Shown here in pieces: positions 9,926 through 47,339 of a stretch of DNA of 64,000 bases. Every line of letters begins with the position of its first letter. Position 1 is the first letter of the stretch. This DNA comes from Minisyncoccota bacterium (GTDB lineage: Bacteria > Patescibacteriota > Minisyncoccia > Phycocordibacterales > UBA12088), in NCBI GenBank assembly GCA_041908795.1, contig JAYRER010000048.1:18413-82412 (forward strand), given 5' to 3'. Under the pieces are notes generated by a model. The model saw only the letters and a program-made list of their open reading frames with translations. It had not been told where the DNA came from and did not search any database. The position numbers were made by a program, and so were the translations under genes.

Positions 9926-10308
9926 TAGAGTATGTTGAGGGCGCCTTCGAGGAGCGAGCGCATCACCGTGGCATCACCTGCGGGAATGAGCGAGCCCTTG
10001 CGATACTCAACGGTTCCGATGATGGTTTTGAGTACCGCGCGTGCGGCGACGAGGTTGCCCTTCCCTCCCTTCTTGATGAGCCCCTCGGCGACGAGGACAC
10101 GGCCGTTGATCCACGCGGCAAGTCAGTGGGGAATATCCGCACTCTTGGTGTACGCGTGCAGGAGTGCGAGGTAGTCGAGCGTGGTCTGCTCCTCCCCACC
10201 CCTACTCGTGGTGTCGACCATGCCGTCGCCATCGAAGTCGAGCTCGATAAAGGGCACACTGTCTTGAACTTTCGCGACACTTAAAACGAACCGTTGTTGA
10301 AAAACCAT
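9926..10308 (-). pseudogene. Hypothetical protein gene interrupted by an in-frame TGA at about 10123-10125. Possible pseudogene, sequencing error or recoding
   Basis: Manual translation of the minus strand: MVFQQRFVLSVAKVQDSVPFIELDFDGDGMVDTTSRGGEEQTTLDYLALLHAYTKSADIPH-TGA-LAAWINGRVLVAEGLIKKGGKGNLVAARAVLKTIIGTVEYRKGSLIPAGDATVMRSLLEGALNIL-TAA. The protein-like frame continues 65 codons past the stop. Confidence 0.4.
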
Positions 10309-11709
10309 ACTTGGCCAACCAAAGCAATAGAGCCATTATGCTACACTCGGTGCATGCGAGGAACTATACATGTGCTCATGGGGGCGTGGGCGTACGTGTG
10401 CCAAGAGTGGAGACGTGCGCACGTAGCTTTTAGAACCCTGTTCATAGTAGTAGCCGCCTTACATATCGCATCCGTGTTCCTTCTACCCGCATTCGGTGGG
10501 ACATACTCCGGAACACAAGACCCTCTCGAGTATCGGATGATGGCAGAACATATCCTCTCCCACGGGGTGCTCTCGATTGCACACCCATGGGAGCAGAACC
10601 CCGACATCTACCGTGGGCCCGGGTACTCGCTCTTTCTCGCTCCGCTCCTCCTACTCGATTCCACAGCCACGCTTGCCATTCTGGTACAAAAGCTGCTGCT
10701 CTTTTTGGGCGGTTTTCTTGTACTGTGGCTTGCACTCACGTTTGGATTGTCGCGACCTCTCGCATGGAGCGGAGTACTGCTCTACCTGGCAGAACCCTAT
10801 CAGTGGATTCTCTCACTTCAGACCATGACCGAAACCGTATTTACCTTTCTGTTCCTACTCCTGTGCGTGGGGGTTACGTACCTCACAGTGTACCGTGCTT
10901 CACTCCAACAACAGCATCGCTGGAGTGTGAGCATTGGCCTTGCGGTAGTGGTGTCACTCGCGACACTTGCAAAGCCGACCGCGGCCATACTCGCCCTCCC
11001 GCTCCTTGTGTTTCTGGTTGTCTTTCACGGGTGGAAACTGGCCACCGTCGCGACGCTGGCCATAGTGGCAATGCTCAGCCCGCTTATCGTACGCAACTAC
11101 ATGCTGACCGGAGATATGCTACTGAGCACCACTCCCTACTACAACTATGTACAGGGGTTTGGCACCGAAGCAGAGAAGCAGGCGGTAATCGGTACCGATA
11201 GGCGTACTGATGAGAAGGGACGACTATTTCTCATTATTGACGGCTTCACCCTTGATGGGTATGAGAACTTAAAGCGTGTGTACGCACAGGTCACCGAGCG
11301 CACCTCACTACTGGAGAGCATTGACGATCAGGTTATGTGCTCGCATCATGTCCTTTTTCATCGCTACAAGCCCCACTTTGCAATGCTGACGCAGAACCGC
11401 TTTTCATTTCTTGACAGAACAATAGATTACGCAGGGTTTTCCTTTATGGGCATCGTGTACCTCCTTGCACTTATAGGCACGGCCACTGTTTTACGTACCC
11501 GAAAGGCCCTTTTCCCCGTGGTTGCGACGGTGGGCGCATGGTTCGCACTTATTGTCTTTGCCAACGTGTGCATGGGGTACTCGCGCATGCTTATCCCGAT
11601 GCACGGCCCACTATTTATCATGGCTCTTGCCGGACTCGCTGCGCTGTTTGGGTGTGCCCGAAGAAGCGGCATAGTTGCGCTCACGTCGGCGGTACAACGC
11701 GCGAAGTAG
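10294..11709 (+). CDS. Polytopic membrane glycosyltransferase, GT-C superfamily (ArnT/PMT/GT39-like)
   Basis: 471 aa with more than 10 TM segments and hydrophilic loops typical of GT-C/GT83/GT39. Alternative start at 10354 (MRGTIHV). Confidence 0.55.
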   Translation: MLKNHTWPTKAIEPLCYTRCMRGTIHVLMGAWAYVCQEWRRAHVAFRTLFIVVAALHIASVFLLPAFGGTYSGTQDPLEYRMMAEHILSHGVLSIAHPWEQNPDIYRGPGYSLFLAPLLLLDSTATLAILVQKLLLFLGGFLVLWLALTFGLSRPLAWSGVLLYLAEPYQWILSLQTMTETVFTFLFLLLCVGVTYLTVYRASLQQQHRWSVSIGLAVVVSLATLAKPTAAILALPLLVFLVVFHGWKLATVATLAIVAMLSPLIVRNYMLTGDMLLSTTPYYNYVQGFGTEAEKQAVIGTDRRTDEKGRLFLIIDGFTLDGYENLKRVYAQVTERTSLLESIDDQVMCSHHVLFHRYKPHFAMLTQNRFSFLDRTIDYAGFSFMGIVYLLALIGTATVLRTRKALFPVVATVGAWFALIVFANVCMGYSRMLIPMHGPLFIMALAGLAALFGCARRSGIVALTSAVQRAK

Positions 11710-12582
11710 TTGCGGTGAAAAAGGAAACAGTGCGCCTAGAAGTGCAAGAAGATAGTGTCTCCTCCCTGTCACACGAAATGCCTCGTAAAGGCGTTGAATC
11801 GCCCTTCCCTTTTTGCCCGCAAGCAAGAGCCCCATACCTGCACCATACGCAGGAGGGCCGAAATTTGCGGGACAGTGCGCCATGAAGTCATCGTGCATTT
11901 CATCAAGGAAGACGTCGAGTACTTTTGCTCGCTCGATAGAAAGTTTCAGATTTGGTCGCGCACGGTTTTTTGTCACGGAGTACTGGTCGCTGTTTGGATA
12001 GAATATCCCCAGTGGCTCCGCGTGGTAGTACGATTGTGTGCGCTTTTCTATTCTCCTAAAGAATATGAACTGCAGGTACTTTACCTCCCAGCGTGTCGTG
12101 CCGATGATGTTTCTACGAATGGTGGCGAACCCTGTTTTTATCCTGCGCTGGCCTCTCTCGCACAAAAGATCTTCGAAAGGAATCGGCCCGGTGGTACGCT
12201 CAAGACCCGTTACCTCACCGTCCGGCGTACGAAAGGGAGCTCCAACAAACCCAATGTCGGGATACTGTGTATACACCGTATGAATGGTTTCAAGTGCATG
12301 TGGAAAAAGCTCGTCGTCACTGTCCAAAAAAGCAATAATGTCGCCTCGGGCCTCGTCAATACCCCGATTTCTCGCCTTGTTCACTCCTTGGTTAGTGCCT
12401 AAGTTCACGTAGCGAATCTTGGGATGCTTGTACTTCCCCTCAAAGAGTTCCGCAGTCTTGTCCGTTGATCCATCGTCGATGACGATTATCTCAATATCTT
12501 GGAACGTTTGTGCGAGCACACTCTCGAGCGCACGCTGTACAAAAACCTCTCGGTTATACGTCGGAATGATGACGCTTATCAT
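11611..12582 (-). CDS. Glycosyltransferase family 2
   Basis: MISVIIPTYNRE...LDSDDE. GT-A fold with DxD. Confidence 0.85.
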   Translation of the reverse strand: MISVIIPTYNREVFVQRALESVLAQTFQDIEIIVIDDGSTDKTAELFEGKYKHPKIRYVNLGTNQGVNKARNRGIDEARGDIIAFLDSDDELFPHALETIHTVYTQYPDIGFVGAPFRTPDGEVTGLERTTGPIPFEDLLCERGQRRIKTGFATIRRNIIGTTRWEVKYLQFIFFRRIEKRTQSYYHAEPLGIFYPNSDQYSVTKNRARPNLKLSIERAKVLDVFLDEMHDDFMAHCPANFGPPAYGAGMGLLLAGKKGRAIQRLYEAFRVTGRRHYLLALLGALFPFSPQLLRALYRRRERNYAASSGTPKQRSESGKSHDK

Positions 12583-12584
12583 AG

Positions 12585-13298
12585 CTACCGAAATATCTTG
12601 TCACGAACATCGCGTGCGCGCCAGTAGAGCGGTGTGAGCATGAGGCGGAACTTCCAAAATGGAATATTGCGCGAAATGATGACCCGCGGTATGGCGTAGG
12701 GGTCGAGCGTCTCCCCGTCGTAGAGCACGCCGACGGGGCCGGTGGCATACTCGTAGTATTTCGCGGCAAACTTTTTCACCCGTGCGTCGAAGTTACCCTT
12801 GGGGTACGCAAGACCCACAACCTTCTTCTGTAAGTTGTCCTCTATGAGTTGTTTTGAGTGTGAGAGCTCGTAGTCAAGCTCACTGTCGGAGAGTGTGGTG
12901 AGGAGCGGGTGCGTGTGGGTGTGGCTCTCGATTGAAACGAGTCCGCTCGACTCAAGCTCTCGCATCTGCTCCCATGAGAGAAATCGAAATGTGAACCCCT
13001 CGGCATTCGTGTGGTCCTTCCCCACAAAATCAGTGGCAACAAAGATGGTGGCGTGTATGTTGTGCTTTTTTAAGATTGGGAGTGCGTTGGTGAGATTGTC
13101 CTCAAGACCGTCGTCGAATGAAAATGTAACATATACACAGTTCGCAGGGCTTACCCCCATTCGTGACAAGTTTTTGACTTGGCTTACCTGCGTAGAGCTA
13201 TTTTTGATCCTGTCATACTGCTGATTAAGTACATAGGGCTGTACAGCATGTACGTATGCCAAGTCAGACACCGAATGGTATGCGTAATTGAGTAGCAT
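12585..13298 (-). CDS. Polysaccharide deacetylase (CE4/NodB family), copy 1
   Basis: TFSFDDG...ALPILKKHNIHATIF...HTHTHP (NodB motifs). Confidence 0.8.
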   Translation of the reverse strand: MLLNYAYHSVSDLAYVHAVQPYVLNQQYDRIKNSSTQVSQVKNLSRMGVSPANCVYVTFSFDDGLEDNLTNALPILKKHNIHATIFVATDFVGKDHTNAEGFTFRFLSWEQMRELESSGLVSIESHTHTHPLLTTLSDSELDYELSHSKQLIEDNLQKKVVGLAYPKGNFDARVKKFAAKYYEYATGPVGVLYDGETLDPYAIPRVIISRNIPFWKFRLMLTPLYWRARDVRDKIFR

Positions 13299-14266
13299 TA
13301 CGCTGTGTTATGTTGTTTTTTGTAGTAGTCCCGCATCCACTCAACCGTGCGTCGCACACCCTCTTCAAGCGATACCGAATTTGTATGTCGTAAATCTCGC
13401 ACAGATTTACTTACATCCACATGTTTGTTTTTTGTGGTAAGTATCTCACTTTCAGCATAAGAGATGAGAGAAACATCTGCATGGGTATACTTCCACACAA
13501 GAGTAGCCAAATCTTCAATAGAATGTTCTTCGCTTCCTCCGATATTGTAGACTTCCCCCGCCTTAAAGTTGTCCACGATATTGCTAAGAGTTCGTACACT
13601 GTCTTCAAGGAACGTGGAAGTGCGAGTATGTCCGCGATACACAGTAACCGGTAACCCATGGAGGGCGTGGTATGTAAACTTGCAATTAACACTTCTGTAG
13701 GGATGGTACCACTCACCCGGTCCATACGTATTGAAAAGACGCACTACTACAGTTTCCGTTCCATGTTGTATTCTTGAGTTACGTACCTGTTGTTCATTTA
13801 CCCACTTTGAAAGAGCGTAATCATTGAGTTGCTTGACCTCTGTGGTATCCATTACATCCTCAACCATGGTGTCGGGAAAATCCCCATACACCTCTGAAGA
13901 AGAAAAATGTATGAGTTTAAAACGGAGCTTCTCCTGTAACCGGAGCATATGTTTTGTTCCAATAGCGTTGGAGCGCCAGACTTGCTCATAAAAATCCTCT
14001 CCATTCCACCTCCCAAACTCCGCCGCCGCGTGGTACACAAAGTCAAAGGTGCCATGCTTCTCGAACACCCGCTCAATTTGACGATAGTCGCCAACATCAC
14101 AACGTGAGTAAGAAGCCTCTGTTTTTGACATTTCATGTTCCCACCCAACCTCTCCTGGAGCGTGTTCCAAATCAACCCCAAACACGCTATGGCCTTTCTC
14201 TGTAAGCATAGCAACAAGCCATGTACCCACCACCCCACGAGATCCAGTCACAAGTATTCTCGACAT
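13298..14266 (-). CDS. NAD-dependent epimerase/dehydratase (SDR family)
   Basis: ILVTGSRGVVG Rossmann motif. YxxxK present. Confidence 0.8.
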   Translation of the reverse strand: MSRILVTGSRGVVGTWLVAMLTEKGHSVFGVDLEHAPGEVGWEHEMSKTEASYSRCDVGDYRQIERVFEKHGTFDFVYHAAAEFGRWNGEDFYEQVWRSNAIGTKHMLRLQEKLRFKLIHFSSSEVYGDFPDTMVEDVMDTTEVKQLNDYALSKWVNEQQVRNSRIQHGTETVVVRLFNTYGPGEWYHPYRSVNCKFTYHALHGLPVTVYRGHTRTSTFLEDSVRTLSNIVDNFKAGEVYNIGGSEEHSIEDLATLVWKYTHADVSLISYAESEILTTKNKHVDVSKSVRDLRHTNSVSLEEGVRRTVEWMRDYYKKQHNTA

Positions 14267-14294: not shown

Positions 14295-15107
14295 TTATTC
14301 CACTCGCTTTGCCAAAAAAACAAGGTGCCTTCCTAAAGGCAGTGCTGTTCTGCCAAGCGCTTGTTCGAAGGAAATAATGAGCCACCGCAGAGGTGCAAGG
14401 TGTAAAGGATACTTCAATAATGTATCAAAATACGGTCCGTCAACGTAGGAGCAGTACCTCACTTTTTTGACATCAAACCCATGCTGTTCAAGACTGGCTC
14501 GCAAACTTGTTCTACTAAATTCCCGTACATGTGCATCACCGTGACGTGCGAGCTCTTCAATAGTGAAATGCTCAAGTGAGTGGAACGACCGATACCCCAG
14601 CGTCCGCATGAGTCGACCCCACCACGTGCCATCGGCATTGTAGTTTGGTGTGGTGAGAAGCAAGTAGCCCCCGGGCTTGATGAGGCGACGCAATTCTTTC
14701 AGCATGGCGTCTTTATCGTGCACATGCTCTATCACCTCGGAGCTGATAGCGACATCAAATGAAGCATCATCTGCTGGTATTCTTTCGCCAACCGATGCAG
14801 TGAACGTTATGTGCTCCGCTTCACAAAGTGCTTTTTGCTTGTTTGCTTCGGTAATGAAGCTCTCAGCGATATCTACACCGAGCCCCTTATGAATGGTGTC
14901 GCGCGCACGAAGAAGTTGGCGCCCTGTTGCACAACCCACATCGATAACCGCCTCATGTGGCACGGTCCGAAGCAATCGATCGATTGCCTCCTCTCGCACA
15001 TAGTTGGTGAGACCCACGCGGTGTGTAGGTTGAAACTTGTACCCTCCGTAGAGGTACGCTTTCTCTTTTCCAAACTGCTCCCACATTAGTTTGTAGCTAC
15101 TACTCAT
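14295..15107 (-). CDS. Class I SAM-dependent methyltransferase, copy 1
   Basis: VIDVGCATG motif I, EVIEHV, PGGYLLLTTPN. Confidence 0.8.
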   Translation of the reverse strand: MSSSYKLMWEQFGKEKAYLYGGYKFQPTHRVGLTNYVREEAIDRLLRTVPHEAVIDVGCATGRQLLRARDTIHKGLGVDIAESFITEANKQKALCEAEHITFTASVGERIPADDASFDVAISSEVIEHVHDKDAMLKELRRLIKPGGYLLLTTPNYNADGTWWGRLMRTLGYRSFHSLEHFTIEELARHGDAHVREFSRTSLRASLEQHGFDVKKVRYCSYVDGPYFDTLLKYPLHLAPLRWLIISFEQALGRTALPLGRHLVFLAKRVE

Positions 15108-16245
15108 GGTCTAGTTCGCTCACAGCCGAAGCAAATTGCTTTCCTATGGTATGCCATGACAGGTACTCCGCTGTAAAAGCCCGTGCTGCGTTCCCCACTT
15201 TTACACGTCCAGCAGGCCCCATGGCGTGTACCTCCTTGAGGGCCTGTGTGAGTCCATCCACAATACTGGACGGGGAAATCACAATGAACGGCGAGGGTGC
15301 CACCTGCTTCTTTTGAAGTTCCGCAACCGGTCCCACATCGGTGACGATAACGGGGACACCGAGCGCAAGGTACTCGGGTAGTTTCGAAGGAAATGCGTAC
15401 TCGGTCATTGGATGGAGAGGTCGGGGAATCGAAAGCACGTCAGCTTTTGAAATAATTTTTCCTACGTCCGTATGAGGAACATTCTGGTGAAGTTCGATTG
15501 AAACATCCAAATGCTTTTCCTTCAATAGATTACGCAATTCCCCCGCATCCCCACTCACCACAAACAGCAATGTGAACGGGAACGATTTTTCGGATTGTAT
15601 TCTTGCAACGGCCTCTATGAGATCTTCTGTCCCCTGGTACCCACGAAGGTTGCCCATGTACCCTATCACAAGTGGCGTAGAAGGAGCTGTGACATCCTTT
15701 TCAGTGTGCACAGGATAGTCCTCCAAGTCCACACCACCATAGATGGGCACGAACTTCGAATTAACCCACGCGTAGTAAGAACCGAGTTTGCTTGAAACAG
15801 GAAATACACGATCGTACCAGAAAAGCCAAAAAGCGGTGCGCAGTTTCATGCACCAACTTTTCCAATGCCCTATCGCTCCCTTGAATCGCCACTCTTCGTG
15901 CAGCAGTCCATGGAGGTCAATACCTATGGAAACCCCAGTACACAACTTAAGCACTACAGGCAATTTAACGTTCGTTTCTGTACTGGTTAAAACCACTTCA
16001 ATCTTTCTTTCACGCACCAGTCGCTTCAATGTGGTAAGTTTTTGTATGGATGTGCCTGTGGGGTAAGGTATAAAATCAACATTCTTCGCATCTGTACCAA
16101 GCGCACACACCGTAACATCGTGATGCTTGGTGAGTTCCGTCAGTAAGTGGTGAATACGAATCGGTGTTCCACGAAGTGGATTCCGAAGGTCGGTGCTTGT
16201 GATATACAACACCTTCTTACGAACAATTTGGTTATCTTGGTTCAT
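15100..16245 (-). CDS. Glycosyltransferase family 4 (GT-B)
   Basis: 381 aa. C-terminal GT1/GT4 domain (EYLALGVPVIVTDVG). Confidence 0.8.
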   Translation of the reverse strand: MNQDNQIVRKKVLYITSTDLRNPLRGTPIRIHHLLTELTKHHDVTVCALGTDAKNVDFIPYPTGTSIQKLTTLKRLVRERKIEVVLTSTETNVKLPVVLKLCTGVSIGIDLHGLLHEEWRFKGAIGHWKSWCMKLRTAFWLFWYDRVFPVSSKLGSYYAWVNSKFVPIYGGVDLEDYPVHTEKDVTAPSTPLVIGYMGNLRGYQGTEDLIEAVARIQSEKSFPFTLLFVVSGDAGELRNLLKEKHLDVSIELHQNVPHTDVGKIISKADVLSIPRPLHPMTEYAFPSKLPEYLALGVPVIVTDVGPVAELQKKQVAPSPFIVISPSSIVDGLTQALKEVHAMGPAGRVKVGNAARAFTAEYLSWHTIGKQFASAVSELDHE

Positions 16246-16630: not shown

Positions 16631-17824
16631 CTAATTTCCATGAGTTTGTATGAATTTGAGGATGTTGTGCGCTCGTTTTTCCCACGTGTACTTTTCCTTT
16701 ACCTCGCGGCGGGCTTTCTCTGCGCGGGTGGCGGCCGCCTCCTGGTCGGCAAGCACGGCGTGTACGCCGCGCGCCATGTCCTCCGCGTCGCCGGGTCGCA
16801 CAAACACCGCGAGCGATTCGTCGAGTATTTCCCGCACACTCGGAAGGTCGGTCGTCACCATGGGGATCCCGCTCGCCATGTACTCAAAGAGCTTGATGGG
16901 GCTCATGAAGAGGCGGTAGTGTTCGAGGTCGGGGTACGCCATCACCAGCACGTCACAGACGAGGAAGTACTGCGGGAACTCCTTCTGGGGAATGTGCCCC
17001 ACCACCGTCACATCCTCCCGTGCGATACCCGCTGCGGCGCAGAGCTCATTGATGTACGGCTTTTCATGCTCCTCGACACCCGCCAAAAAGAGGAGCGCGT
17101 GCGGGTGCTTTTTCTTCACCGCCGGGAAGCCCTCGATGAGCTCCTCGACCCCCTTGCCCTTGCCCATGGTGGTGATTTTCCCGAGGTGGCCCACGATGAG
17201 CCGATCTTCGGGAAGACCGAGCGCCACGCGGAGCTCCGACTTTGTAAGCGGACTCTCAAACCGCTCGGGCGAAACGGCGTCGGGCGCCACGAGTACCTTT
17301 TCGGGGAGAATGTTCCACGTACGTACATAAAAGTCCTTGAGTCCTTTGGTTATCGCCACACAGTGGTGCACATTACGCAGTATTGCTCGAATATGAATGA
17401 GTGGCCGTTTAGTATGGATTTCGTATACGAGGCGGTTTGTACATAAGCTCAAGAAGAATCCCGTAACCTCATCACGCGAATAAATGACATCGGGTTTCAA
17501 AACGAGTGCACGAACAGTCGCTACAAGAGCAAACGTTAGCAATTGCAACAAGTGCCCCGTTTTCCCAAGCCAATGCCACTCAAGTGACGGACATCGCACT
17601 ACTCGAAAGGAGTGGGTCACTCCGTAGAACGCACACACATCTTCTTTCAAGCGATACTTGCTGTCGGCGGTAACTAATGTCACCTCCACCTTCTCTCCAT
17701 GCATAGTTGCATGAGAAAACGCCTCGCACATTTTAACAATTTGGACGCTATATGCCTTGTGTGAAGGTATACGCCCGTTTGAGACATACACAAGATGCAT
17801 ACTTCTAGTTCTTAGGAGAGACAA
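16631..17824 (-). CDS. Glycosyltransferase family 4 (GT-B)
   Basis: EYMASGIPMVTTDLP. GT4 C-terminal domain. Alternative start at 17800. Confidence 0.8.
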   Translation of the reverse strand: MSLLRTRSMHLVYVSNGRIPSHKAYSVQIVKMCEAFSHATMHGEKVEVTLVTADSKYRLKEDVCAFYGVTHSFRVVRCPSLEWHWLGKTGHLLQLLTFALVATVRALVLKPDVIYSRDEVTGFFLSLCTNRLVYEIHTKRPLIHIRAILRNVHHCVAITKGLKDFYVRTWNILPEKVLVAPDAVSPERFESPLTKSELRVALGLPEDRLIVGHLGKITTMGKGKGVEELIEGFPAVKKKHPHALLFLAGVEEHEKPYINELCAAAGIAREDVTVVGHIPQKEFPQYFLVCDVLVMAYPDLEHYRLFMSPIKLFEYMASGIPMVTTDLPSVREILDESLAVFVRPGDAEDMARGVHAVLADQEAAATRAEKARREVKEKYTWEKRAHNILKFIQTHGN

Positions 17825-19469: not shown

Positions 19470-19580
19470 AGCGAACGCGTCATGTGAGCAGTGTACCGTT
19501 TTTCCGAACAACACGCACCACCTGCACGCTGTGGGCTTTGTGCGAGGGGAGCTTGGTATTGGCAATGTAGAGGAGTCGGG

Positions 19581-33455: not shown

Positions 33456-33479
33456 TTGATAAGCGTTCCGCGTAGCGTG

Positions 33480-37275: not shown

Positions 37276-38652
37276 CTATCCTACTCTAAAATGCGCCGCC
37301 ACGCGAACAAGTAGCGTTTTGATAGTCCGAAAAATTATCGCAAGGTCGAGCAACATGCTTCTATTCTTCACGTAGTAAAGATCATAGGCGAGTCGCACCT
37401 TACTCTCCTCAATAGATTGGGGGCTTATATGACCCGACAAGTACTGCTGATGGGTTTGTGCCCAGCCGGTGATTCCCGGTGGCACGGCATACCGTGCACG
37501 ATAAAAGGGAACGTGCTCAAGCAAGCGAACACCCAAACTCTCGATATCATTACGCGGACCGATTAGTGACATATTCCCCCAAAGAATGTTCCAAAGTTGT
37601 GGTAGCTCGTCCAGACTTGTAAAACGTAGGAAGCGTCCTACACGCGTCACCTTGTTTGAACCTTCCCCTTGCCAGTATCCTTTGTCGTTTTCAGACATTG
37701 TTCTTAATTTGTAGACCTTTAATACCTTCCCGTTCTCACCAAGCCTACGTTGCGATATAAATACCGACCCTCCATCGTCCAGTTTAATCATAATCATGAC
37801 TAGCGGGAGACACAATATGAAGAGCACCCCAAGCGGAACAGAGAGCATGATATCCGCACAACGCTTCGCCACTCGATACAGTCCGTCACTCGAAGAGGTG
37901 AGGTGTTGGAGAAACCACTCAAAACGAAGCGCGGAGAGCGGTACGCGATCAAACAATTCCTCGTATGCGGACTCGAAATCTATAAACGTGAGCCGCCGAG
38001 TACCAAACGAGTACTCCACAAGTGCTGCAATGAGATTGGCAAGCTTAGGGGTATACGGACTCGCTACAATAATGCTAATATCCTGATTCTTTACAACCTC
38101 GAGCGTTCGAGCAACGAAGTCCGGTGTCCTTTCAACCAAAGCGTAATCAACAATACGCACAAACTCATACTCGTACCGATAGTTGCCGTTTACCTCCCGA
38201 ACAAGCTCTTCTGCCTCCTGCCCCTCAGCAAGCAGGAGTGCCTTATACCTTTTCCGTGGGCGAAAGTGTGGGAAGAGTGTGAGACGCCACGCAACCATGA
38301 GAAGCGAGGAGACTCCGAGGTAAATGAGGAGATTGGTTTTGGGAGCAATGGGAAAAATTGGCAACAAGAAAAAAAGTGCCGCGGCACACAGCACATTTAT
38401 TGTTTGTGCGGTGAAAATGCGTCCAGGGAGACGTCGTTGGAGAATGACCGTATGCTTATCGTACAATCCTGCGATGAAGTATACTGCGAGCCAAACAGCG
38501 GAGAGAAAGGTGAATGCCGGAAGGTGATCCTCCAGTCGCACACGAGTGGGAAGCTCAAAATATCGCACAAACAGTGTGATATAAAGCGCCACAAGAAAAA
38601 ACGTAAGGTCTCCCAGCACAAGTATGAATAGTTCTCTCCGTCGTACATGCAT
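37276..38652 (-). CDS. Undecaprenyl-phosphate sugar phosphotransferase (bacterial sugar transferase, WbaP/WcaJ-like priming enzyme)
   Basis: N-terminal TM segments plus the C-terminal Bac_transf domain (KLRTM...[20 protein letters not shown]). Confidence 0.85.
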
Positions 38653-38694
38653 AGTGGAAATAGGTACTTGCTAGTGTATAGTATCGTTGTGCAT

Positions 38695-39885
38695 ATGGAA
38701 CCAACAAATACTCCTTCTGTCAAGAATCTGTGTATCGTGATCGCGATTACTAAGTCCAATTGGGGGGGTGCCCAACGCTATGTGCACGACCTCGCTGTTG
38801 CACTTCACGCGCAAGGCCACCATGTTCATGTTGTACTTGGTGGCACGGGGGAGCTTGCACAAAAACTCCGAGACGGAGGAATCGACGTATCCTCCGTTCC
38901 AACACTTACTCGCGACATTACCCTTACACAAGAGATCCGATCCTTTATTCATATCTATAAGGTGCTACGTACGATACGTCCTGACGTGCTACACCTTAAC
39001 AGCAGTAAAGCGGGAGGGCTCGGCGCACTTGCGGGAAGAGTGCTTGGGGTACCACGCATCATATTCACGGCACACGGGTGGGCATTTAACGAGCCGAGAT
39101 CCCGGTTCGTGTGTATATTGCTACGAACTCTGTACTGGATCACCATACTACTAGCTCACCGGACTATTGCCGTGTCGGCGGCCACCGCGCGTGACATCAT
39201 ACACCTGCCGTTCATGCGCTCACGTATCGAAGTGATACATGTTGGATGTACGTCTACAGCCATCCTTCCACGCAATGATGCACGCAGAGCTCTTGAGCAA
39301 ATGCATCCCTCGCTTGCGAGCATTTTTTCAAGTAACGCAAAAGTATTTGTAACTATCGCTGAGCTACACCCCATCAAGGGACACCATGTAATGCTTGAGG
39401 CTTTTTCACGCACACAGATGCACACTCCCTCAATGTACTGGGTGCTTATGGGGGATGGTGAACTTCGAGATGAACTACAGACGACCATTAAAAAATGGAA
39501 CCTGAATGAAAAAGTGTTGCTTCTGGGTCACGTGCGTGATGCGAGTCGCTACCTAAACGCATTCGACTACTTTGGACTTCCCTCACTTTCAGAGGGTCTT
39601 GCATACGTTCTCCTTGAGGCGGGGCTTGCAAATCTTCCTGTGATTGCCACGTGTGTGGGCGGCATACCAGAAGTTATAACCGATGGGAAAACCGGTCTCC
39701 TGGTACCCTCAAAAGATGCGAGTGCGCTTGAGAAGGCTCTCACCACACTTATAGCCGACACGCATCTGGCGTATTCGCTTGGCAGTGCTCTCAATACCCA
39801 AGTGCGAACCAACCACTCTCTAGCACAAATGGTTGCGCGCATCGTGGATGTCTACCACAATCAGCAATTCTTCAAAGAGGCTTAA
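38695..39885 (+). CDS. Glycosyltransferase family 4 (GT-B)
   Basis: LLEAGLANLPVIATCVGGIPEV. Start trimmed to 38695 (MEPTN). Confidence 0.8.
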   Translation: MEPTNTPSVKNLCIVIAITKSNWGGAQRYVHDLAVALHAQGHHVHVVLGGTGELAQKLRDGGIDVSSVPTLTRDITLTQEIRSFIHIYKVLRTIRPDVLHLNSSKAGGLGALAGRVLGVPRIIFTAHGWAFNEPRSRFVCILLRTLYWITILLAHRTIAVSAATARDIIHLPFMRSRIEVIHVGCTSTAILPRNDARRALEQMHPSLASIFSSNAKVFVTIAELHPIKGHHVMLEAFSRTQMHTPSMYWVLMGDGELRDELQTTIKKWNLNEKVLLLGHVRDASRYLNAFDYFGLPSLSEGLAYVLLEAGLANLPVIATCVGGIPEVITDGKTGLLVPSKDASALEKALTTLIADTHLAYSLGSALNTQVRTNHSLAQMVARIVDVYHNQQFFKEA

Positions 39886-40748
39886 GGATGTAGGATCTCA
39901 GTCCCGTACACACCTTCCAGAAGATCCGTGTCCTTGCCTGAGTCTCGGAGCAGTTCTATGTTCTTTTTTTCAAGCGCCCGTAGGAGTGTGATTGAATTTT
40001 TTCCATCGATATGTTTCTCAAAATAGTTTGCAAGTGCCGCAAAATCTTTGATGAAACAATGCCCACCTGCGCCCCGACCCAACACCGCACTTTTGTGTCC
40101 ACTCATATCCACAGGGTGCATGTGACTACTGCCTATTCGGGTGTCGGCTGACATTGCTTGTGCGAGCACTTCGTAGTCAGCTCCCACATTCTGACAGAGG
40201 TCGTACAGGAGGTTCATAAAAACCACCTTGGTAAAAAGGAAGCAGTTGCCACCGTACTTGATGAGTTCCGCGGTTATCGCGTCAGTTACCAGTTCGTAAG
40301 GTGCCCGGGGAAGTACCGCAAGTACTTTTCGAGCAGCGTCATGGTACACGTCTGTATCCTCTGGAATGCCCAGTATGTTTCTTTCCGGATTCGCTGCGTC
40401 GTAGGCAGCTGACTTCTCACGTAAAAACTCAGGGGAGTGGAGAATGAGTAGTGTGGGGAAATCTTGCTGCAGTCTGCTTGTCGTACCCGGCAGTATCGTT
40501 GACTTAATAACCGCAATCGCGTTAGGTCCTACCTTGGTGAGGGCATCACGCAATTGACGATCATTGAATCCCTCTGGTGTTGTTGGAGTAGGAACAGCCA
40601 CGAAGACGATTTCGCATTTTGATACCGCCTCCCCATTTTGTGCGTACGGCTCCTCAAGCGCATACCGTATCACCTGATACCCGCGCCGTTCAAAATCATC
40701 GGCGTAATTCTTCCCAATAAACCCTTGGCCTATGCATCCAATCTTCAT
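39882..40748 (-). CDS. Truncated UDP-glucose/UDP-ManNAc 6-dehydrogenase-like protein (N-terminal NAD and central domains only), paralog A
   Basis: KIGCIGQGFIG, IKSTILPGTT, SPEFLREKSA, catalytic-Cys motif GRGAGGHCFIKD. Only 288 aa, so it lacks the roughly 100-aa C-terminal UDP-binding domain. Confidence 0.7.
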   Translation of the reverse strand: MKIGCIGQGFIGKNYADDFERRGYQVIRYALEEPYAQNGEAVSKCEIVFVAVPTPTTPEGFNDRQLRDALTKVGPNAIAVIKSTILPGTTSRLQQDFPTLLILHSPEFLREKSAAYDAANPERNILGIPEDTDVYHDAARKVLAVLPRAPYELVTDAITAELIKYGGNCFLFTKVVFMNLLYDLCQNVGADYEVLAQAMSADTRIGSSHMHPVDMSGHKSAVLGRGAGGHCFIKDFAALANYFEKHIDGKNSITLLRALEKKNIELLRDSGKDTDLLEGVYGTEILHP

Positions 40749-40750
40749 AC

Positions 40751-41674
40751 CTATTTGGTTGCCTTCGGCTTTTTCTTCACTCTTTGCACTTTTCCCTCAA
40801 GACCGGCCCCTTTTCCGTACACACCTTCCAAAAGATCAATATCTTTTTCGGTCATCCTCAGCAAGTGGGTGTTCTTTCGTTCCATTGAGTAGAACACTTC
40901 CGCACCACGAGAATCCCCCGTTGCTTGCTCATACCATCGTGCAAACGCGGCCATATCCTTGATGTAGCAAGGTCCTCCTGCTCCACGACCGGGTACCGCG
41001 CCCGGGTGTCCGCTTGTGTGTACCGGATTGTTGTAGTAGTGCGCTCGAGATGAGAGATAAGGATCTGCATCAAGTGCACGCTTAAGCTCATCCCATGTAG
41101 CTCCAGTGGCTTGAGCCGCATCATACATTAGATTCGTAAATAATATTCGCATATACCCATGAAGATTATGTGCGTACTTGATGAGTTCCGCTTCATGCGA
41201 CGTACATACTTGACTGTGTACACTGGGAGGAAAATGCGACAGTACGGTTTGTGCGTGTTTTTTTGTACTTACCCCGGGAACAAACCCCACGATATTCATG
41301 ATGGGGTATGCCGCATCCCATCCCGCAGTCTTCGCAAGCAAGAACTCGGGAGAAAACATGACGCGAACATTAGGATACTGACTTTGCAGCACTTCCGTGG
41401 TTCCAGGAAGCAGGGTCGACTTGATTACTGCTATTTTTCCCTTTCCGACAAGAGCGATCGATTCGCGTACGATAGAATCATCGAATCCCTTAGGGGTGGT
41501 GGGGGTCGGTACCGCAATAAGAACTATGTCGCAAAGCGCTATTCTTGACTTGTTGTCGCGGTACGCATCTTCAAGCGAGTAGCGCACGGTCTCATAGCCA
41601 CGTTTTTCAAAATCATCGGCATAGCTCCTCCCAACAAACCCTTGGCCGATAAATCCTATAAGAGGTTGTGCCAT
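40751..41674 (-). CDS. Truncated UDP-sugar 6-dehydrogenase-like protein, paralog B (tandem duplicate)
   Basis: IGFIGQGFVG, IKSTLLPGTT, SPEFLLAKTA, GRGAGGPCYIKD. 307 aa, colinear with paralog A. Confidence 0.7.
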   Translation of the reverse strand: MAQPLIGFIGQGFVGRSYADDFEKRGYETVRYSLEDAYRDNKSRIALCDIVLIAVPTPTTPKGFDDSIVRESIALVGKGKIAVIKSTLLPGTTEVLQSQYPNVRVMFSPEFLLAKTAGWDAAYPIMNIVGFVPGVSTKKHAQTVLSHFPPSVHSQVCTSHEAELIKYAHNLHGYMRILFTNLMYDAAQATGATWDELKRALDADPYLSSRAHYYNNPVHTSGHPGAVPGRGAGGPCYIKDMAAFARWYEQATGDSRGAEVFYSMERKNTHLLRMTEKDIDLLEGVYGKGAGLEGKVQRVKKKPKATK

Positions 41675-41979: not shown

Positions 41980-42987
41980 ATGAATGCTCGCACCATTATC
42001 CCAACCCTTATGCACGCAACAGGGTTGCCGCACATAATGAGACTGCGTCAACGAAACCGACTGGTTGTCGTGCTCTACCACGGCGTCACAGATGATATTG
42101 GTACGGGAATTTTCAACTACCGCGGAAAGTTTGTTTCAACACATACGTTTAATAATCATCTTGACTACTTTACACGTCACCACACCGTACTTGGACTCGA
42201 TGAAGCCGTACGTCTACTGTTTTCAGAATCTCCATTGCCTTCCTACCCTCTCTGTATCACATTTGATGATGGGTACAGGAATTTTTTTACCCACGCAGCT
42301 CCGCTTCTCAAGCAGTACCGAATGGCGGCAACCATGTTCCTCACCACCTCATTTATCGACACAAAGAAGCCCTTGTGGGTGGACCGCCTCGAGTACGCCG
42401 CGGGCCATGGAATCCACCCGACACTCCCTGACCGTACCGCGCGCGCAAAATTGGATGCGCAGATACGCTCAAGACTCAAGCAACTCCCGGACCTTGAGCG
42501 CGAATCCACGCTTTCTACATTTGAGGAGAAGGTCGCTGCAAAACTTGTCGATTTTGATGAGTCAAGGAGCGTATACGCACCCCTCTCGTGGAGTGAGGTG
42601 GAAACGTTGGAAAAAGAGGGTATGATGTTTGGTGCCCACAGTGTGCACCACCCTATTCTGACTCGCCTTACACCCGAGGCGCTGCGCGTAGAAGTGGGCG
42701 AATCAAGGGAATGTGTCACGAGGCGCTGCAAGAAATCGTCTTCGGTATTTGCCTATCCGAACGGACAATCGGGTGATTATGATGAGGTAGTCACGCGCGA
42801 AGTGCGCGCGTGCGGATTCACCGCCGCACTGACTACGATTCCCGGCAACAACAAAAAGACCACCAGCCCCTATGCGCTCAAACGCTACACGATGAGCACA
42901 CGGGACGTGGGGGCCTCATTTATTCAAAACGTTACTGGCACTAACACAGCACTTTCATGTCTACTACAACAACTCGGGCGGAGGTGA
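41980..42987 (+). CDS. Polysaccharide deacetylase (CE4), copy 4
   Basis: CITFDDGYRNFFTHAAPLLKQY...HSVHHP. Confidence 0.75.
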   Translation: MNARTIIPTLMHATGLPHIMRLRQRNRLVVVLYHGVTDDIGTGIFNYRGKFVSTHTFNNHLDYFTRHHTVLGLDEAVRLLFSESPLPSYPLCITFDDGYRNFFTHAAPLLKQYRMAATMFLTTSFIDTKKPLWVDRLEYAAGHGIHPTLPDRTARAKLDAQIRSRLKQLPDLERESTLSTFEEKVAAKLVDFDESRSVYAPLSWSEVETLEKEGMMFGAHSVHHPILTRLTPEALRVEVGESRECVTRRCKKSSSVFAYPNGQSGDYDEVVTREVRACGFTAALTTIPGNNKKTTSPYALKRYTMSTRDVGASFIQNVTGTNTALSCLLQQLGRR

Positions 42988-43742
42988 GTTTTTTCAATGA
43001 GCGCAGTCGCTCGTACCTTGATGAGTACGGAAAAGAGACTCCCGAGGGTTTTTCATTCCGTATGCGTCGCGAAGGGGTACTACGGGTACTGCCAGACGGA
43101 GAGGGTAAGCGCGTGCTTGATATTGCCGGCGGACCCGGTGTGATGATAGCCGGTTTGCGTAAAAAAGGATACGAGGTTGACTGTGTGGATGCGGCTCCTG
43201 AAATGGTTGCGCTTGCGGCCCAAGAGGCGCGTGGCGACGCTAAGGTTCACACACACGTCGAAGACGTGCTCGCTCTTTCATACAAAAATGGCACGTTTGA
43301 CGCGCTGACTGCCATGGGTCTTGTTGAGTACCTTGATGATCAGGACAGGGCGATGCGAGAAATGGCACGGGTACTCAAACCTGGAGGTGTTGCGATTATC
43401 ACGTTCCCCAATCGTTACTCTCTATGGCGTTTCTGGGCAGCAACACTGCGGACCGTTTTCTACCCACTGCGTACGCTGCACAAAAAACTGACCGGGAAGC
43501 CGGTGTACCCTATACGTCATCGAGAGTACACACCGGAACAGGCACGAGCGTACATGCGCATACACGGACTTGTGCCTGCGCAGACGATTTACTACAACTA
43601 CAAGCTCATGCCATTTCCTCTCGATAAATTTTTTCCACGATTGACCGTGATTCAGTCGAGCCTCTGTGAAGGTAGAGGGGGAGTATTCTCTCGTTTCTTC
43701 GCCACCGCTTTTATTGTGGAGGGGGTGAAGCGGGCTCTGTAG
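42957..43742 (+). CDS. Class I SAM-dependent methyltransferase, copy 4
   Basis: VLDIAGGPG, LVEYLDD, PGGVAIITFPN. Overlaps PDA4 by 31 nt. Confidence 0.75.
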   Translation: MSTTTTRAEVSFFNERSRSYLDEYGKETPEGFSFRMRREGVLRVLPDGEGKRVLDIAGGPGVMIAGLRKKGYEVDCVDAAPEMVALAAQEARGDAKVHTHVEDVLALSYKNGTFDALTAMGLVEYLDDQDRAMREMARVLKPGGVAIITFPNRYSLWRFWAATLRTVFYPLRTLHKKLTGKPVYPIRHREYTPEQARAYMRIHGLVPAQTIYYNYKLMPFPLDKFFPRLTVIQSSLCEGRGGVFSRFFATAFIVEGVKRAL

Positions 43743-44919
43743 TTTCCTCTATCGAAGAGGTCACGTCGTCAGTGATCCCCCTACTCCTCAGGTAGCAGGT
43801 CTCGAATGATTCTTTCATGGCAGCGAGGTACTCTTCATCCGTAGTCTGAAATTTGTCCTTGACTGCGGTTGCAGCAGCTTCTTTCAATTGTACTCGTAGT
43901 GGAAAACTTTCAATAAGGCTACGAAGTTTGTTGGCGAGACACTCAATGTCTCCCACAGGACACGCCAAGCAATGTACCTTATCTATCAATACCGAACCCA
44001 CGACGCCGACATTGGTCGTCACGATAGGGCAATGGAGCATCGCCGCCTCAACAAGGGTCCTACCAAACCCCTCAAACTCTGAGGTGAGGAAGTAGACATC
44101 GGCACTTTGGTAGTAGCATGCAACATTTTCCTTCCACCCCTCAAACACCACACGATTCTCAAGGTGTAGCTCTTTGACAAGCGAAACCAGTCTTTTTTTC
44201 TCCTTACCCTCTCCCACTATAATTAACCCAACACTCGGATAGTGAGACGCAAGAAGGTTGAAAGCACTAATCGCATCTTCAATACGCTTCTCCGAAGTAA
44301 GTCGAGACACCATGAGCACAGTGAATTTAAAGTAAGGATACTTTTCGTTAAGGTTTGTTACGGGAGGTTTTGTTGGATCAAGATTTGAAAAATCTACCCT
44401 TACAGGAAGCACCGTGAGGACCGCCCCCTCAAGAAGTCCCCGTTGTTCGAATGACTGGCGCACATGGTCAGAGACAATACGCAGACACTGTGTTCGTGCA
44501 ACAAGCCAATTAGCGAGATGCAATCGAATCCTATTGAGCATCCCACTCTCAACAAACTCGGGTGCAAACGGATCGGTGTGCACTTGGAGTTGAAGGGGAA
44601 GTTTGAGCTCTCGCGCGATAAGATACCCCGCCAAACCACACTCAAACGGATCTTGAGCGGAGACGAGATCCACCCGCTCTATGTTCTTCCCCATACGATA
44701 CGCGTCGTACACATAGAGGAGAGGATGACGACTGTTGGTGGCATACACCCATACGTTTGGGGCGATCTGTTGTTTTAAGAGACCTGTACCCCTGCGGGTA
44801 AACACAATAATATGGAGCTCATCAACAATAGCCCCTTGCTTTGTAATGCGCCGCCTAGCCTCGCTCTCGGCATCAAATAGTTTTCGCTCGCTCCCCACCA
44901 AGAGTACATTCATACCCAT
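43711..44919 (-). CDS. Glycosyltransferase family 4 (GT-B)
   Basis: EGFGRTLVEAAMLHCPIVTTNVG (GT4 EX7E-like region). Confidence 0.8.
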   Translation of the reverse strand: MGMNVLLVGSERKLFDAESEARRRITKQGAIVDELHIIVFTRRGTGLLKQQIAPNVWVYATNSRHPLLYVYDAYRMGKNIERVDLVSAQDPFECGLAGYLIARELKLPLQLQVHTDPFAPEFVESGMLNRIRLHLANWLVARTQCLRIVSDHVRQSFEQRGLLEGAVLTVLPVRVDFSNLDPTKPPVTNLNEKYPYFKFTVLMVSRLTSEKRIEDAISAFNLLASHYPSVGLIIVGEGKEKKRLVSLVKELHLENRVVFEGWKENVACYYQSADVYFLTSEFEGFGRTLVEAAMLHCPIVTTNVGVVGSVLIDKVHCLACPVGDIECLANKLRSLIESFPLRVQLKEAAATAVKDKFQTTDEEYLAAMKESFETCYLRSRGITDDVTSSIEETTEPASPPPQ

Positions 44920-45913
44920 AGAGTACCAGAAAATCCCTTGCTATGTCACGGTATGTTCTTCCCCATGGTAGCGCGGCGGCACGTGCGTGCCACATCCTGC
45001 GCTCATTCGAGTCAGCCATTCGAATAACTGCAGCTACGATATCTTCAAGCGAAAGGGGATCAACAAATAGCACACTGTCCTTGAGTGACTCACAGTATCC
45101 GGTCTCTTTGGTGAGAATAACTGGCACACCAAAAGAGAGTGCTTCAAGTGCAATATTTGGTGTTACCTCCGAAAGGGAGGGGAGCACGAGGGCCCACGCA
45201 CGCCGCATCACTCGATGTGCTTCTTCTTGCGGAACGTTGGCGAGAGTCACCAGCTCTATTTCAGGACATGTTGCGCGCGCACGCTCGAATGCTCGTGCGA
45301 GTCGCGCTGTGTTCTTGAGAAAAAGCGGCCTCCCCACCCACACGAAACGCTTACTAGGTGGCTCCTCTGGTACACTGCGTACAGGTTGCACATTCTCGAT
45401 AACTGCGGTTCGCTCGTACGGTATGGTATATGCGGCAACTGTGAGAGCCTGTTGCCATTGAGAAGAAAATACCACTCTGGTGGGTAGCGCGAACACCACT
45501 CTGCGAGTGATACACTTGAGTATTCGCTCATAGAAACTTAGCGGTGGTGAGGTCTGGTAAAATGTTGAAAGTGGTACCTCACACCTGGTACGCTCGACAA
45601 AACGTTCCCACAGGAAATCTCCACCACTACGCACAAATACACACGTACGAAAGAGGCGTGCCATGAGCACTGTAGGGATCGCGACACTCCACGTATCTAG
45701 GGAAATCACTAAGTCCGCTGTTTTTAGGGGTTTCCATAATCCTGCCGCAAACGCAACATGACGCACCACCTTCGGGTACATGCGATAGGTTGAAAACGAA
45801 ACAAGTGAAACTGTATGTCCTTCTGCCACAAACCCATCCCGTAACCCTTCAGAGTAGTAGGAAGGACCTCCCGCCTGCGGAGGACTCAACGGAGTAGCAA
45901 TAACAACGTGCAT
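44873..45913 (-). CDS. Glycosyltransferase (GT-B, GT4-like)
   Basis: LEALSFGVPVILTKETG. The track start is TTG at 45928. The in-frame ATG at 45913 is preferred. Confidence 0.7.
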   Translation of the reverse strand: MHVVIATPLSPPQAGGPSYYSEGLRDGFVAEGHTVSLVSFSTYRMYPKVVRHVAFAAGLWKPLKTADLVISLDTWSVAIPTVLMARLFRTCVFVRSGGDFLWERFVERTRCEVPLSTFYQTSPPLSFYERILKCITRRVVFALPTRVVFSSQWQQALTVAAYTIPYERTAVIENVQPVRSVPEEPPSKRFVWVGRPLFLKNTARLARAFERARATCPEIELVTLANVPQEEAHRVMRRAWALVLPSLSEVTPNIALEALSFGVPVILTKETGYCESLKDSVLFVDPLSLEDIVAAVIRMADSNERRMWHARAAALPWGRTYRDIARDFLVLYGYECTLGGERAKTI

Positions 45914-45926
45914 AACTACAGTATAC

Positions 45927-45959
45927 AAAAAAAGAAAGCGCCGTCATTCAAAACGGCGC
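45927..45959 (-). terminator. Rho-independent terminator (GCGCCGT-cattcaaa-ACGGCGC hairpin followed by TTTCTTTTTTT on the minus strand)
   Basis: Read directly. It terminates minus-strand transcription coming from the rplB side, immediately upstream of the glycosyltransferase start. Confidence 0.6.
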
Positions 45960-47337: not shown

Positions 47338-47339
47338 AG

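Follow-up and report, generated by a model that had tools for sequence, protein, structure and literature searches.

A rare fusion of GtrA and GT-C domains in a glycan gene island of a Minisyncoccota bacterium, and its possible role in glycosylation outside the membrane

How is a surface glycan built and delivered from a locus in which no classical exporter is recognisable? This question is raised by a 64-kb stretch of contig JAYRER010000048.1 from a Minisyncoccota bacterium, here called the window, to which all positions refer unless a related locus is named. Pfam and NCBIfam scans, which covered every gene-like open reading frame (ORF) of the window, reveal that the studied region at 10294-45928 (~36 kb) is an almost uninterrupted run of glycan genes. 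A previous description, here called the sequence-only reading, had proposed a glycan biosynthesis island of about 35 kb, and the domain scans place the genes it had named where it had put them. The element of most interest is a gene that joins a GtrA domain to a polytopic glycosyltransferase (GT) of the GT-C fold, next to a gene for a flavoenzyme resembling UDP-galactopyranose mutase (UGM). The island belongs to a known kind, namely a surface-glycan locus with GtrA-dependent, GT-C-mediated glycosylation outside the membrane; a “GtrA-dependent” cluster of similar sort has been described in Actinoplanes (PMC13390465). Our best explanation is a cell-surface glycan locus of a Saccharibacteria-type bacterium of the candidate phyla radiation (CPR), with a cytoplasmic assembly line as one layer and a transmembrane glycosylation module as the other. 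Taken as a whole, this model has about an even chance of being right.

The absence of classical exporters was examined first at the level of domains. Polysacc_synt/Wzx (PF01943/PF13440), Wzy_C and Wzz were not found in any gene-like ORF of the 64 kb nor in 10 shadow ORFs, and the same applies to ABC_tran and ABC2_membrane. The island had been said to contain no flippase, polymerase, chain-length regulator or ABC transporter. This stands for Wzx, Wzy, Wzz and ABC proteins, but not for flippases in general, since both the GtrA domain and an EamA protein are flippase candidates. A hydropathy scan finds only four polytopic proteins in the island: two GT-C proteins, the EamA protein and the priming transferase. 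The suspicion that one of them could be a Wzx or Wzy homologue is not borne out, as two have GT-C folds and the protein at 32544-33455 (+) belongs to the EamA/DMT superfamily (EamA 31.5 bits vs cutoff 28.2; ~9-10 transmembrane helices). From its sequence, the latter is a candidate lipid-sugar flippase or sugar transporter.

The two GT-C proteins are GT-C1 (10294-11709, +; 471 aa, with a public gene call from 10354 that gives 451 aa) and the GtrA-GT-C fusion (22477-24585, -; 702 aa), whose GT-C part we term GT-C2. Their PMT_2 scores, 20.9 bits for GT-C1 and 23.5 bits for the fusion, are both below the Pfam cutoff of 26.1, and for this reason their GT-C status was tested separately. A word-indexed search with GT-C1, the fusion or the GtrA domain retrieved only two proteins each; exhaustive HMMER then revealed a family. 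With the 702-aa query, this family is made of mostly stand-alone proteins of ~550 aa that align to residues ~165-700 (61 at E<1e-30). Three members were scanned, P0003, P0007 and P0072, and these pass the PMT_2 cutoff with 27.9-34.4 bits. In the family alignment, one Asp of the first outer loop (D196 in the fusion) is near-invariant, and other residues are fixed as well.

GT-C1 is almost an orphan by sequence and has no C-terminal soluble domain. It is a distant paralogue of the GT-C domain of the fusion: profile comparison with the GT-C2 family gives an hhalign probability of 95.7% (E 9e-9), and the near-invariant residues of the family are retained, including the loop-1 Asp, D76 (10519-10521). 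The locus thus encodes polytopic GT-C folds whose first outer loop holds a conserved acidic residue. The AlphaFold2 (AF2) model of GT-C1 (pLDDT 77) has PglB, STT3, ArnT, ALG9 and Emb as top Foldseek matches, and it matches GT-C structures only. We considered that GT-C1 might be a disguised Wzx, and rejected it, as it does not resemble a Wzx taken from a related locus and no MOP-type structure is among its matches. For the GT-C model of the fusion, structural comparison scores ALG12 at 22.2, ArnT at 21.6, Pmt4 at 20.6, AglB at 20.3, AftA at 17.2 and PglB at 15.5, in agreement with Foldseek. Neither protein matches any PDB chain by sequence, which leaves fold comparison alone as informative, and neither has the STT3 Pfam domain or the WWDxG motif, so that only the general fold is in common. 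Judging from these models, both polytopic proteins have a GT-C fold and are not Wzx or Wzy. The claim of two polytopic GT-C enzymes is therefore upheld by profile comparison, shared residues and GT-C-only structural matches.

The fusion is built from four parts. Residues 1-135 (24181-24585) form a four-helix GtrA domain, and residues 136-164 a charged, disordered, low-confidence linker to the first GT-C helix. The GT-C membrane core covers residues 165-565 (22891-24093), with the loop-1 Asp196 at 23998-24000, and residues 566-702 (22477-22890) make an alpha/beta outer domain. The arrangement of the linker and the first GT-C helix would place loop 1 and D196 outside the membrane. PF04138 (GtrA/DPMS_TM) matches residues 15-129 with 74 bits against a cutoff of 26.1, and the four modelled helices superpose on the membrane domain of the P. 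furiosus dolichyl-phosphate mannose synthase (DPMS). The gene is identical in an independent read assembly and recurs, with 80% identity and in a syntenic cluster, in a second metagenome-assembled genome (MAG), which rules out an assembly artefact and confirms the GtrA-like domain that had been noticed on the second GT-C protein. The fusion is rare. Among the best 150 matches from 1.84 billion representatives, both parts occur together only in the second-MAG relative; in the other GtrA matches, the domain either makes up a whole protein of ~130-170 aa or is joined to a GT4 or GT2 domain. The closest relatives of the GtrA domain, with 137-138 aa, are also stand-alone proteins.

A different flippase is attached to another member of the GT-C family, P0072 (1028 aa), which carries a Wzx-type (Polysacc_synt) domain. 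As two flippase types are fused to one GT-C family, there is good evidence that this family acts immediately downstream of a lipid-sugar flippase. Both types, GtrA and Wzx, serve three-component systems (PMC8035078, PMC11127046).

The neighbour of the fusion gives a hint at the sugar. A flavoenzyme of 503 aa is encoded at 24582-26093 (-), and its stop overlaps the start of the fusion gene by 4 bp. It matches the UGM-like model NF005548 with 421 bits, above cutoff, while the bacterial Glf equivalog model is not reached (51 bits vs 304). Among solved structures, UGMs of the eukaryote type come closest to it (E ~1e-22). In alignment with the Aspergillus fumigatus enzyme (AfUGM), its GPH pairs with GGH63, so that the His-loop H63 is conserved, and the equivalents of R182, W315, Y317, R327, Y419, Y453 and N457 are conserved as well. 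They include the His loop and the two Arg and two Tyr that grip the UDP-sugar, which together with an FAD-binding fold mark the UGM family. From these similarities we conclude that the protein is probably a nucleotide-sugar pyranose/furanose mutase, which refines the FAD oxidoreductase of the sequence-only reading to a UGM homologue.

On the other side of the fusion, at 21479-22459 (-), lies SDR b (326 aa; Epimerase 169 bits), a nucleotide-sugar epimerase/dehydratase of the short-chain dehydrogenase/reductase (SDR) type. Its best PDB match is the UDP-glucose 4-epimerase 4zrm (E 2e-33). Its best NCBIfam model is dTDP-glucose 4,6-dehydratase with 163 bits vs 122 for GalE, both under cutoff. If SDR b is a 4-epimerase, a route from UDP-Glc over UDP-Galp to UDP-galactofuranose (UDP-Galf) with the mutase is plausible.

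We then looked at 25 related loci (L001 to L025), obtained by scanning genome and metagenome collections with a 10-sequence alignment of the GT-C family and annotated by phmmer with the window proteins as queries. The closest, with 84% in the best segment, is from an uncultured Candidatus Saccharibacteria bacterium, a MAG that fits the earlier suggestion of a CPR-type cell. The remaining loci belong to Saccharibacteria, other Patescibacteria and Altiarchaeota, and to several further MAGs, among them proteobacterial ones. A mutase homologue neighbours the GT-C gene in 10 of the 25 loci (L005, L007, L010, L012, L019 and L021-L025), with overlapping ORFs in L022 and L023. A separate GtrA gene is found in the same operon-like block in L007, L019, L021 and L024. 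The SDR b homologue sits between the GtrA and GT-C genes in L007 and L019, whose order is mutase-GtrA-SDR-GT-C, compared to mutase-[GtrA-GT-C]-SDR in the window lineage. This difference points to the fusion as the derived state. The most complete set is seen in L007, where a full-length ArnC/PgfS-like GT2 (199 and 158 bits) accompanies GtrA and GT-C as a three-component system. Another family member, P0023, is fused to Methyltransf_24, and separate Methyltransf_24 genes adjoin the GT-C gene in L010 (9087-9872) and L023 (3080-3799).

Since mutase and SDR are persistently and tightly linked to this GT-C family, a furanose, for instance galactofuranose, is the most likely sugar to be transferred. 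A more specific idea is that Patescibacteria and some other uncultured lineages perform extracytoplasmic hexofuranosylation, where a furanose made by the UGM-type enzyme would be loaded on polyprenyl phosphate, flipped by GtrA and transferred by the dedicated GT-C. We offer this pathway only tentatively and regard it as rather doubtful. At the broader level, extracytoplasmic, lipid-linked glycosylation is likely. The sequence-only reading had favoured transfer from undecaprenyl-phosphate (Und-P) sugars outside the cytoplasm; the GT-C folds and the GtrA-mutase-GT-C neighbourhood in 10 loci agree with it, but the polyprenyl-phosphate GT2 that should load the lipid is not recognisable in the window.

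Several other observations weigh against our model. The lack of an exporter refers to 64 kb of the 105.8-kb contig. No membrane-anchored GT2 of the ArnC/GtrB/CsbB type is recognisable in the window, where the two GT2 enzymes, GT2a and GT2b, look like ordinary soluble ones, neither with clear C-terminal transmembrane helices. No precedent for a polyprenyl-phosphate hexofuranose (galactofuranose) donor was found in the literature searched, which was incomplete, and the usual consumers of UDP-Galf are cytoplasmic transferases, for example in the lactococcal pathway (PMC10821137). The flippase activity of GtrA proteins has never been directly shown (PMC11127046). Lastly, the alignment underlying the GT-C1 model is dominated by GT-C2-family sequences, and the model leans toward the fold of that family. 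As for the missing GT2, an ArnC-type enzyme could lie outside the window, and soluble GT-A enzymes aided by a membrane partner are known, e.g. GacI/GacJ (PMC8035078). Similarly, a Wzx may be located elsewhere in the genome, because Wzx-type genes are present in the related clusters L007, L010 and L019; a weak match occurs in L012.

The same gene content could be read in terms of export. The GT-C proteins would then be a polymerase and/or ligase as in the lactococcal polysaccharide pellicle (PSP) pathway, and the island a complete non-classical export pathway. Units including cytoplasmic Galf would be assembled on undecaprenyl phosphate and flipped by GtrA, EamA or a Wzx elsewhere, and the GT-C enzymes would act like WpsH and WpsJ. 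This would suit an island where a priming transferase and some nine cytoplasmic GTs are found without a Wzy or ligase. It would also suit the two GT-C paralogues found here, the two tandem copies in L019 and the two in L008, as well as the family member fused to a Wzx-type flippase and the high rank of AglB and PglB among structural matches. A precedent exists in Lactococcus, with Glf, a Wzx-like flippase and two GT-C enzymes (PMC10821137). However, GtrA-family proteins go with monosaccharide-phosphate-lipid donors (PMC8035078), the minimal block (L021-L024) consists of GtrA, mutase and GT-C with no priming enzyme beside it, the best structural matches are monophosphate-donor enzymes, and no GT-C_B-type enzyme (WaaL, Wzy, RodA) is among them. 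On balance, we find this export reading unlikely.

A second rival reading concerns the acceptor. The sequence-only reading had named S-layer, pilin or cell wall, and this stays a guess, as nothing in the locus identifies the acceptor. Glycosylation of proteins such as pilins, S-layer protein or adhesins could proceed en bloc (PglB, AglB, TfpW) or sugar by sugar (PMT, Pgf). In the Pgf system of S. mutans, PgfS is the GT-A enzyme, PgfE the epimerase and PgfM2 the GT-C. The closest folds include PMT, AglB, PglB and STT3, but fold alone cannot tell protein from glycan acceptors, and neither GT-C protein has the STT3 match or its motif. The GT2 of L007 matches PgfS over its full length (158 bits) and the module includes an epimerase, as in Pgf. 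The window opens with a pilM gene, and type IV pili are a prominent feature of Saccharibacteria (10.1101/2024.11.25.624915). Set against these points, no Wzy_C/PglL domain is found and no target protein is encoded in the island. Protein glycosylation appears quite improbable as the explanation of the locus.

A third possibility comes from the deacetylases near both GT-C genes. Trios of GT2, carbohydrate esterase family 4 (CE4) protein and GT-C could make, deacetylate, flip and attach a free amino sugar, following ArnC/ArnD/ArnT or the Bordetella LgmA/C/B system. Such genes are adjacent twice, at 10294-13298 (GT2a, PDAa and GT-C1) and at 22477-27852 (GT2b, PDAb and GT-C2), and WecB lies within the same cassette. 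The four CE4 proteins of the island show no obvious signal peptide on inspection of the N-terminus and may be cytoplasmic, but their highest scores are with PgaB and IcaB, enzymes that work on polymers. The EamA protein would find its place as well, given that ArnE and ArnF belong to the EamA/DMT superfamily. On the other hand, neither GT2 is ArnC-like, no aminotransferase or formyltransferase was found in the island, and the tight linkage of mutase and GT-C is left unexplained. We see little prospect for amino-sugar addition as the main role. More than one of the rival readings could hold for the two GT-C enzymes.

Returning to the two-layer model, the first layer would begin with the WbaP/WcaJ-type priming transferase, which would start an oligosaccharide linked to undecaprenyl diphosphate (Und-PP), to be extended by about seven GT4 and one or two GT2 enzymes. 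The donors would come from WecB, the four SDRs, the nucleotidyltransferase, the Ugd-like proteins and the UGM-type mutase, and methyl, carbamoyl and N-deacetylation steps probably modify the glycan. The second layer would be the module within a slightly GC-richer cassette (20.2-34.2 kb). There, the GtrA domain may flip a sugar linked to lipid monophosphate, most likely a furanose, and the fused GT-C domain may transfer it, through Asp196, to an acceptor outside the membrane. GT-C1, beside GT2a and a deacetylase, might perform a second step of the same kind. The flippase or exporter for the Und-PP-linked product would be encoded elsewhere in the genome, or would be the EamA protein itself.

Most of the island, namely the priming transferase, the GT4s and the sugar-nucleotide enzymes, is of an ordinary kind. 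In total there are two GT2, six clear GT4 and one weak, the priming transferase, WecB, four SDRs, a nucleotidyltransferase, a NodU-type carbamoyltransferase, the FAD protein and two short Ugd-like genes. The number of about ten GT-B/GT-A enzymes given before is close to the two GT2 and seven GT4 (one weak) found by Pfam, and each of the sugar-modifying genes named at that time has its domain match. Four CE4 deacetylases, four S-adenosylmethionine (SAM) methyltransferases, a ParDE pair and the EamA identity of 32544-33455 are additions.

The priming enzyme at 37276-38652 (-) had been recognised as an Und-P sugar phosphotransferase, which the scans support. It is a large polyprenyl-phosphate hexose-1-phosphate transferase, a WbaP/WcaJ-type priming phosphoglycosyltransferase, with Bac_transf at 180 bits, TIGR03025 at 276 bits (just under the 295.55 cutoff) and WcaJ at 227 bits. 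Its topology has four N-terminal transmembrane helices and a re-entrant helix.

Among the GT-A enzymes, GT2a (11611-12582, -; Glycos_transf_2 127 bits) has a weakly hydrophobic C-terminus. Its best matches are generic Leloir GT2s, with an ArnC match of 34 bits over the N-terminal part only, and orthologue-like genes adjoin the GT-C family in L019 and L025. The GT-C1 and GT2a ORFs are convergent and their 3' ends overlap by 99 bp, which is unusually long for convergent genes. GT2b (26255-27088, -; Glycos_transf_2 58 bits) is a soluble GT-A enzyme with no ArnC match that weakly resembles SunS, GmaR and AglJ at the N-terminus only; it is conserved in L005 and L019.

The GT4 enzymes are spread over the island. 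Those with Glycos_transf_1 lie at 15100-16245 (-; 57.6 bits), 16631-17824 (-; 74.4 bits), 43711-44919 (-; 117 bits) and 44873-45928 (-; 52 bits). GT4c (20195-21418, -; 118 bits) is the first gene of the higher-GC cassette and is conserved in L005, L007 and L019. GT4-like d (29686-30789, -; 25.3 bits, just under cutoff) is the weak one, and its orthologue in L001 has 79% identity. GT4e (38647-39885, +) is matched by Glyco_trans_1_4 (112 bits) and Glyco_transf_4 (96 bits).

As for sugar-nucleotide enzymes, WecB, a UDP-GlcNAc 2-epimerase, is at 28607-29689 (-; Epimerase_2 298 bits) and the sugar-1-phosphate nucleotidyltransferase at 33480-34169 (-; NTP_transferase 97.5 bits). The remaining SDRs are SDR a (13298-14266, -; Epimerase 131 bits, all NCBIfam matches under cutoff), another nucleotide-sugar epimerase/dehydratase, SDR c (34272-35225, -; GDP_Man_Dehyd and Epimerase ~190 bits) and SDR d (36179-37270, -; Epimerase 88 bits). 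The two tandem Ugd-like genes (39882-41674, -; 288 and 307 aa) are paralogous and have only the central and N-terminal domains (UDPG_MGDP_dh). Both are without the C-terminal UDP-binding domain of nucleotide-sugar dehydrogenases, and the TIGR03026 match spans positions 71-293 of 413.

Modifying enzymes include the NodU/CmcH-type O-carbamoyltransferase (17805-19565, -; Carbam_trans_C 213 bits, Carbam_trans_N 144 bits). The CE4 polysaccharide deacetylases, all matched by Polysacc_deac_1, are a (12585-13298, -; 94 bits), b (27076-27852, -; 90 bits; called as 258 aa in the relative), c (31671-32510, +; 66 bits) and d (41980-42987, +; 81.5 bits). SAM methyltransferases are found at 14295-15107 (a, -; Methyltransf_23 and Methyltransf_11), 27852-28610 (b, -; Methyltransf_11 52 bits) and 42957-43742 (c, +; Methyltransf_11 74 bits), and another methyltransferase, with a Trm112 zinc-ribbon tail, at 30771-31670 (+; Methyltransf_11 57 bits, Trm112p 36 bits). 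The minus-strand ORFs at 30786-32359 were rejected as genes, since domains are only seen on the plus-strand ORFs. For a 258-aa protein at 35337-36113 (+), no family could be assigned; nothing in Pfam, NCBIfam or the PDB sequences matches it, and its N-terminus is loosely like the start of a GT-A fold.

In terms of composition, third-position GC (GC3) is 0.69-0.79 for the genes at 20195-34169, except for EamA, and ~0.45-0.65 on the flanks. It steps from ~0.5 to ~0.75 at the ParE toxin and ParD antitoxin genes (19581-20188, -; ParE_toxin 49 bits, ParD_antitoxin 38 bits), which mark the junction of the lower- and higher-GC parts. The relative carries the same cassette in the same order, without EamA and without the carbamoyltransferase, and has other toxin-antitoxin modules (AbiEii, HepT) at the junctions (L001 13137-14485, 17271-17612 and 18463-19747). 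This suggests that toxin-antitoxin junctions are hot spots for gene exchange. The EamA gene has a GC3 of 0.46 vs ~0.7 in its neighbours and is not found between deacetylase and NTP-transferase in L001 and L005; its low GC3 and its absence at the same spot in the 80%-identical relative mark it as a recent insertion into the cassette. The locus is a mosaic with variable junctions, and its compositional contrast is modest. Strong horizontal transfer of the cassette was rejected, as the GC difference (0.59 vs 0.50-0.55) is modest and the relative shares the cassette.

Beyond the island, a minus-strand ribosomal cluster at 45929-55424, S12-S7-EF-G-EF-Tu-(S10)-L3-L4-L23-L2, ends at L2 (46492-47337). 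The glycan island begins 563 bp past L2, where S19, L22, S3 and others normally come. A tblastn search with E. coli S19 gave nothing significant anywhere in the 64 kb, and the 95-aa ORF at 45944-46231 was rejected as ribosomal protein S19, having no Pfam match and a low-complexity sequence. In two other Patescibacteria MAGs, L010 (3861-11503) and L012 (4120-11488), the mutase-GT-C pair comes directly after gyrB-nusG-rplK, so that glycan genes abut ribosomal-protein genes as in the window. Furthermore, one 586-aa ORF at 4028-5788 combines a YkuD L,D-transpeptidase and an S11 D-Ala-D-Ala carboxypeptidase domain. The pilM-type type IV pilus assembly gene (1-1224), seen through locus L003, runs off the window start, and a ComEC competence channel is encoded near the window end (61645-63102).

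What is new lies at the level of variants: the covalent GtrA-GT-C fusion, and the mutase-GtrA-GT-C block, conserved in Patescibacteria as well as in other uncultured lineages. No description of either was found in the searchable literature, an incomplete source and thus weak evidence of novelty. The fusion is natural evidence of physical cooperation between GtrA and GT-C components, and offers a handy single-protein target for structural and biochemical work on a flippase activity still awaiting direct demonstration. The block suggests that addition outside the membrane may extend to furanoses beyond the pentofuranoses already known. If the hexofuranosylation reading is true, it would be the hexofuranose counterpart of the pentofuranose systems based on phosphoribosyl pyrophosphate (PRPP), the weld of flippase and transferase would imply a direct hand-off of the lipid-linked donor, and the repertoire of three-component glycosylation would widen, with a defined GT-C family to test. 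The surface glycans of CPR/Saccharibacteria episymbionts are almost unstudied, and probably mediate host attachment and phage recognition.

Compared to known systems, the island shares a priming phosphoglycosyltransferase with the Wzx/Wzy pathway, whose Wzx, Wzy and Wzz were not found in the 64 kb, and the ATPase and ABC-2 permease pair of the ABC-dependent pathway was not found there either. With the Arn pathway it only has a CE4 fold, a GT-C fold and an EamA protein in common; there is no ArnA/ArnB, the GT2s are not ArnC-like, and such a cell has no lipid A. The lactococcal rhamnan/PSP system (WpsA-J, Glf; PMC10821137) is similar in its Gram-positive-type envelope, Glf, many cytoplasmic GTs, two GT-Cs and lack of a classical Wzy. 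In that system, WpsH and WpsJ are proposed as polymerase and ligase, and Glf feeds a cytoplasmic Galf-transferase (PMC10821137). The lactococcal cluster also has a Wzx-like WpsG, a GacI/GacJ-type initiating pair and an ABC-exported rhamnan, none of which is seen in the window, where a Bac_transf priming enzyme takes the place of the initiating pair.

Multi-component transmembrane glycosylation has been reviewed (PMC8035078) and extended to pentofuranoses (PMC11127046). Its Gtr type includes GtrA-GtrB-GtrC of Shigella/Salmonella and the Gram-positive CsbB-GtcA-YfhO, GtlA-GtcA-GtlB and CsdAB+CflA (PMC8035078). The likeness lies in a GtrA membrane component with a GT-C bearing an outward-facing catalytic Asp, and GT2 genes nearby, in a surface-glycan locus. 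In contrast, GtrA and GT-C are here joined in a single chain, the window has no recognisable membrane-anchored GT2 of the GtrB/CsbB type, and the conserved block includes a UGM-type mutase and an SDR as integral parts. The pentofuranose systems are those of Citrobacter youngae O1/O2 with GT136 (PMC11127046) and the mycobacterial decaprenyl-phospho-arabinose/Aft/Emb system with Rv3789. PRPP is the starting point of their donors, through a UbiA-type synthase and, in mycobacteria, also DprE1/E2. The window has no UbiA or DprE homologue, and instead of this route it has a flavin mutase of the type that yields nucleotide-hexofuranoses; in Citrobacter the flippase belongs to the MATE/MOP type, compared to GtrA here. 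Finally, the type-III DPMS of P. furiosus (PMC12992685) also has a GtrA-type domain covalently joined to an enzyme for lipid-linked sugars. There, the partner of GtrA is a cytoplasmic GT2 synthase that performs the first step, while in our fusion it is an outward-facing GT-C, predicted to perform the last.

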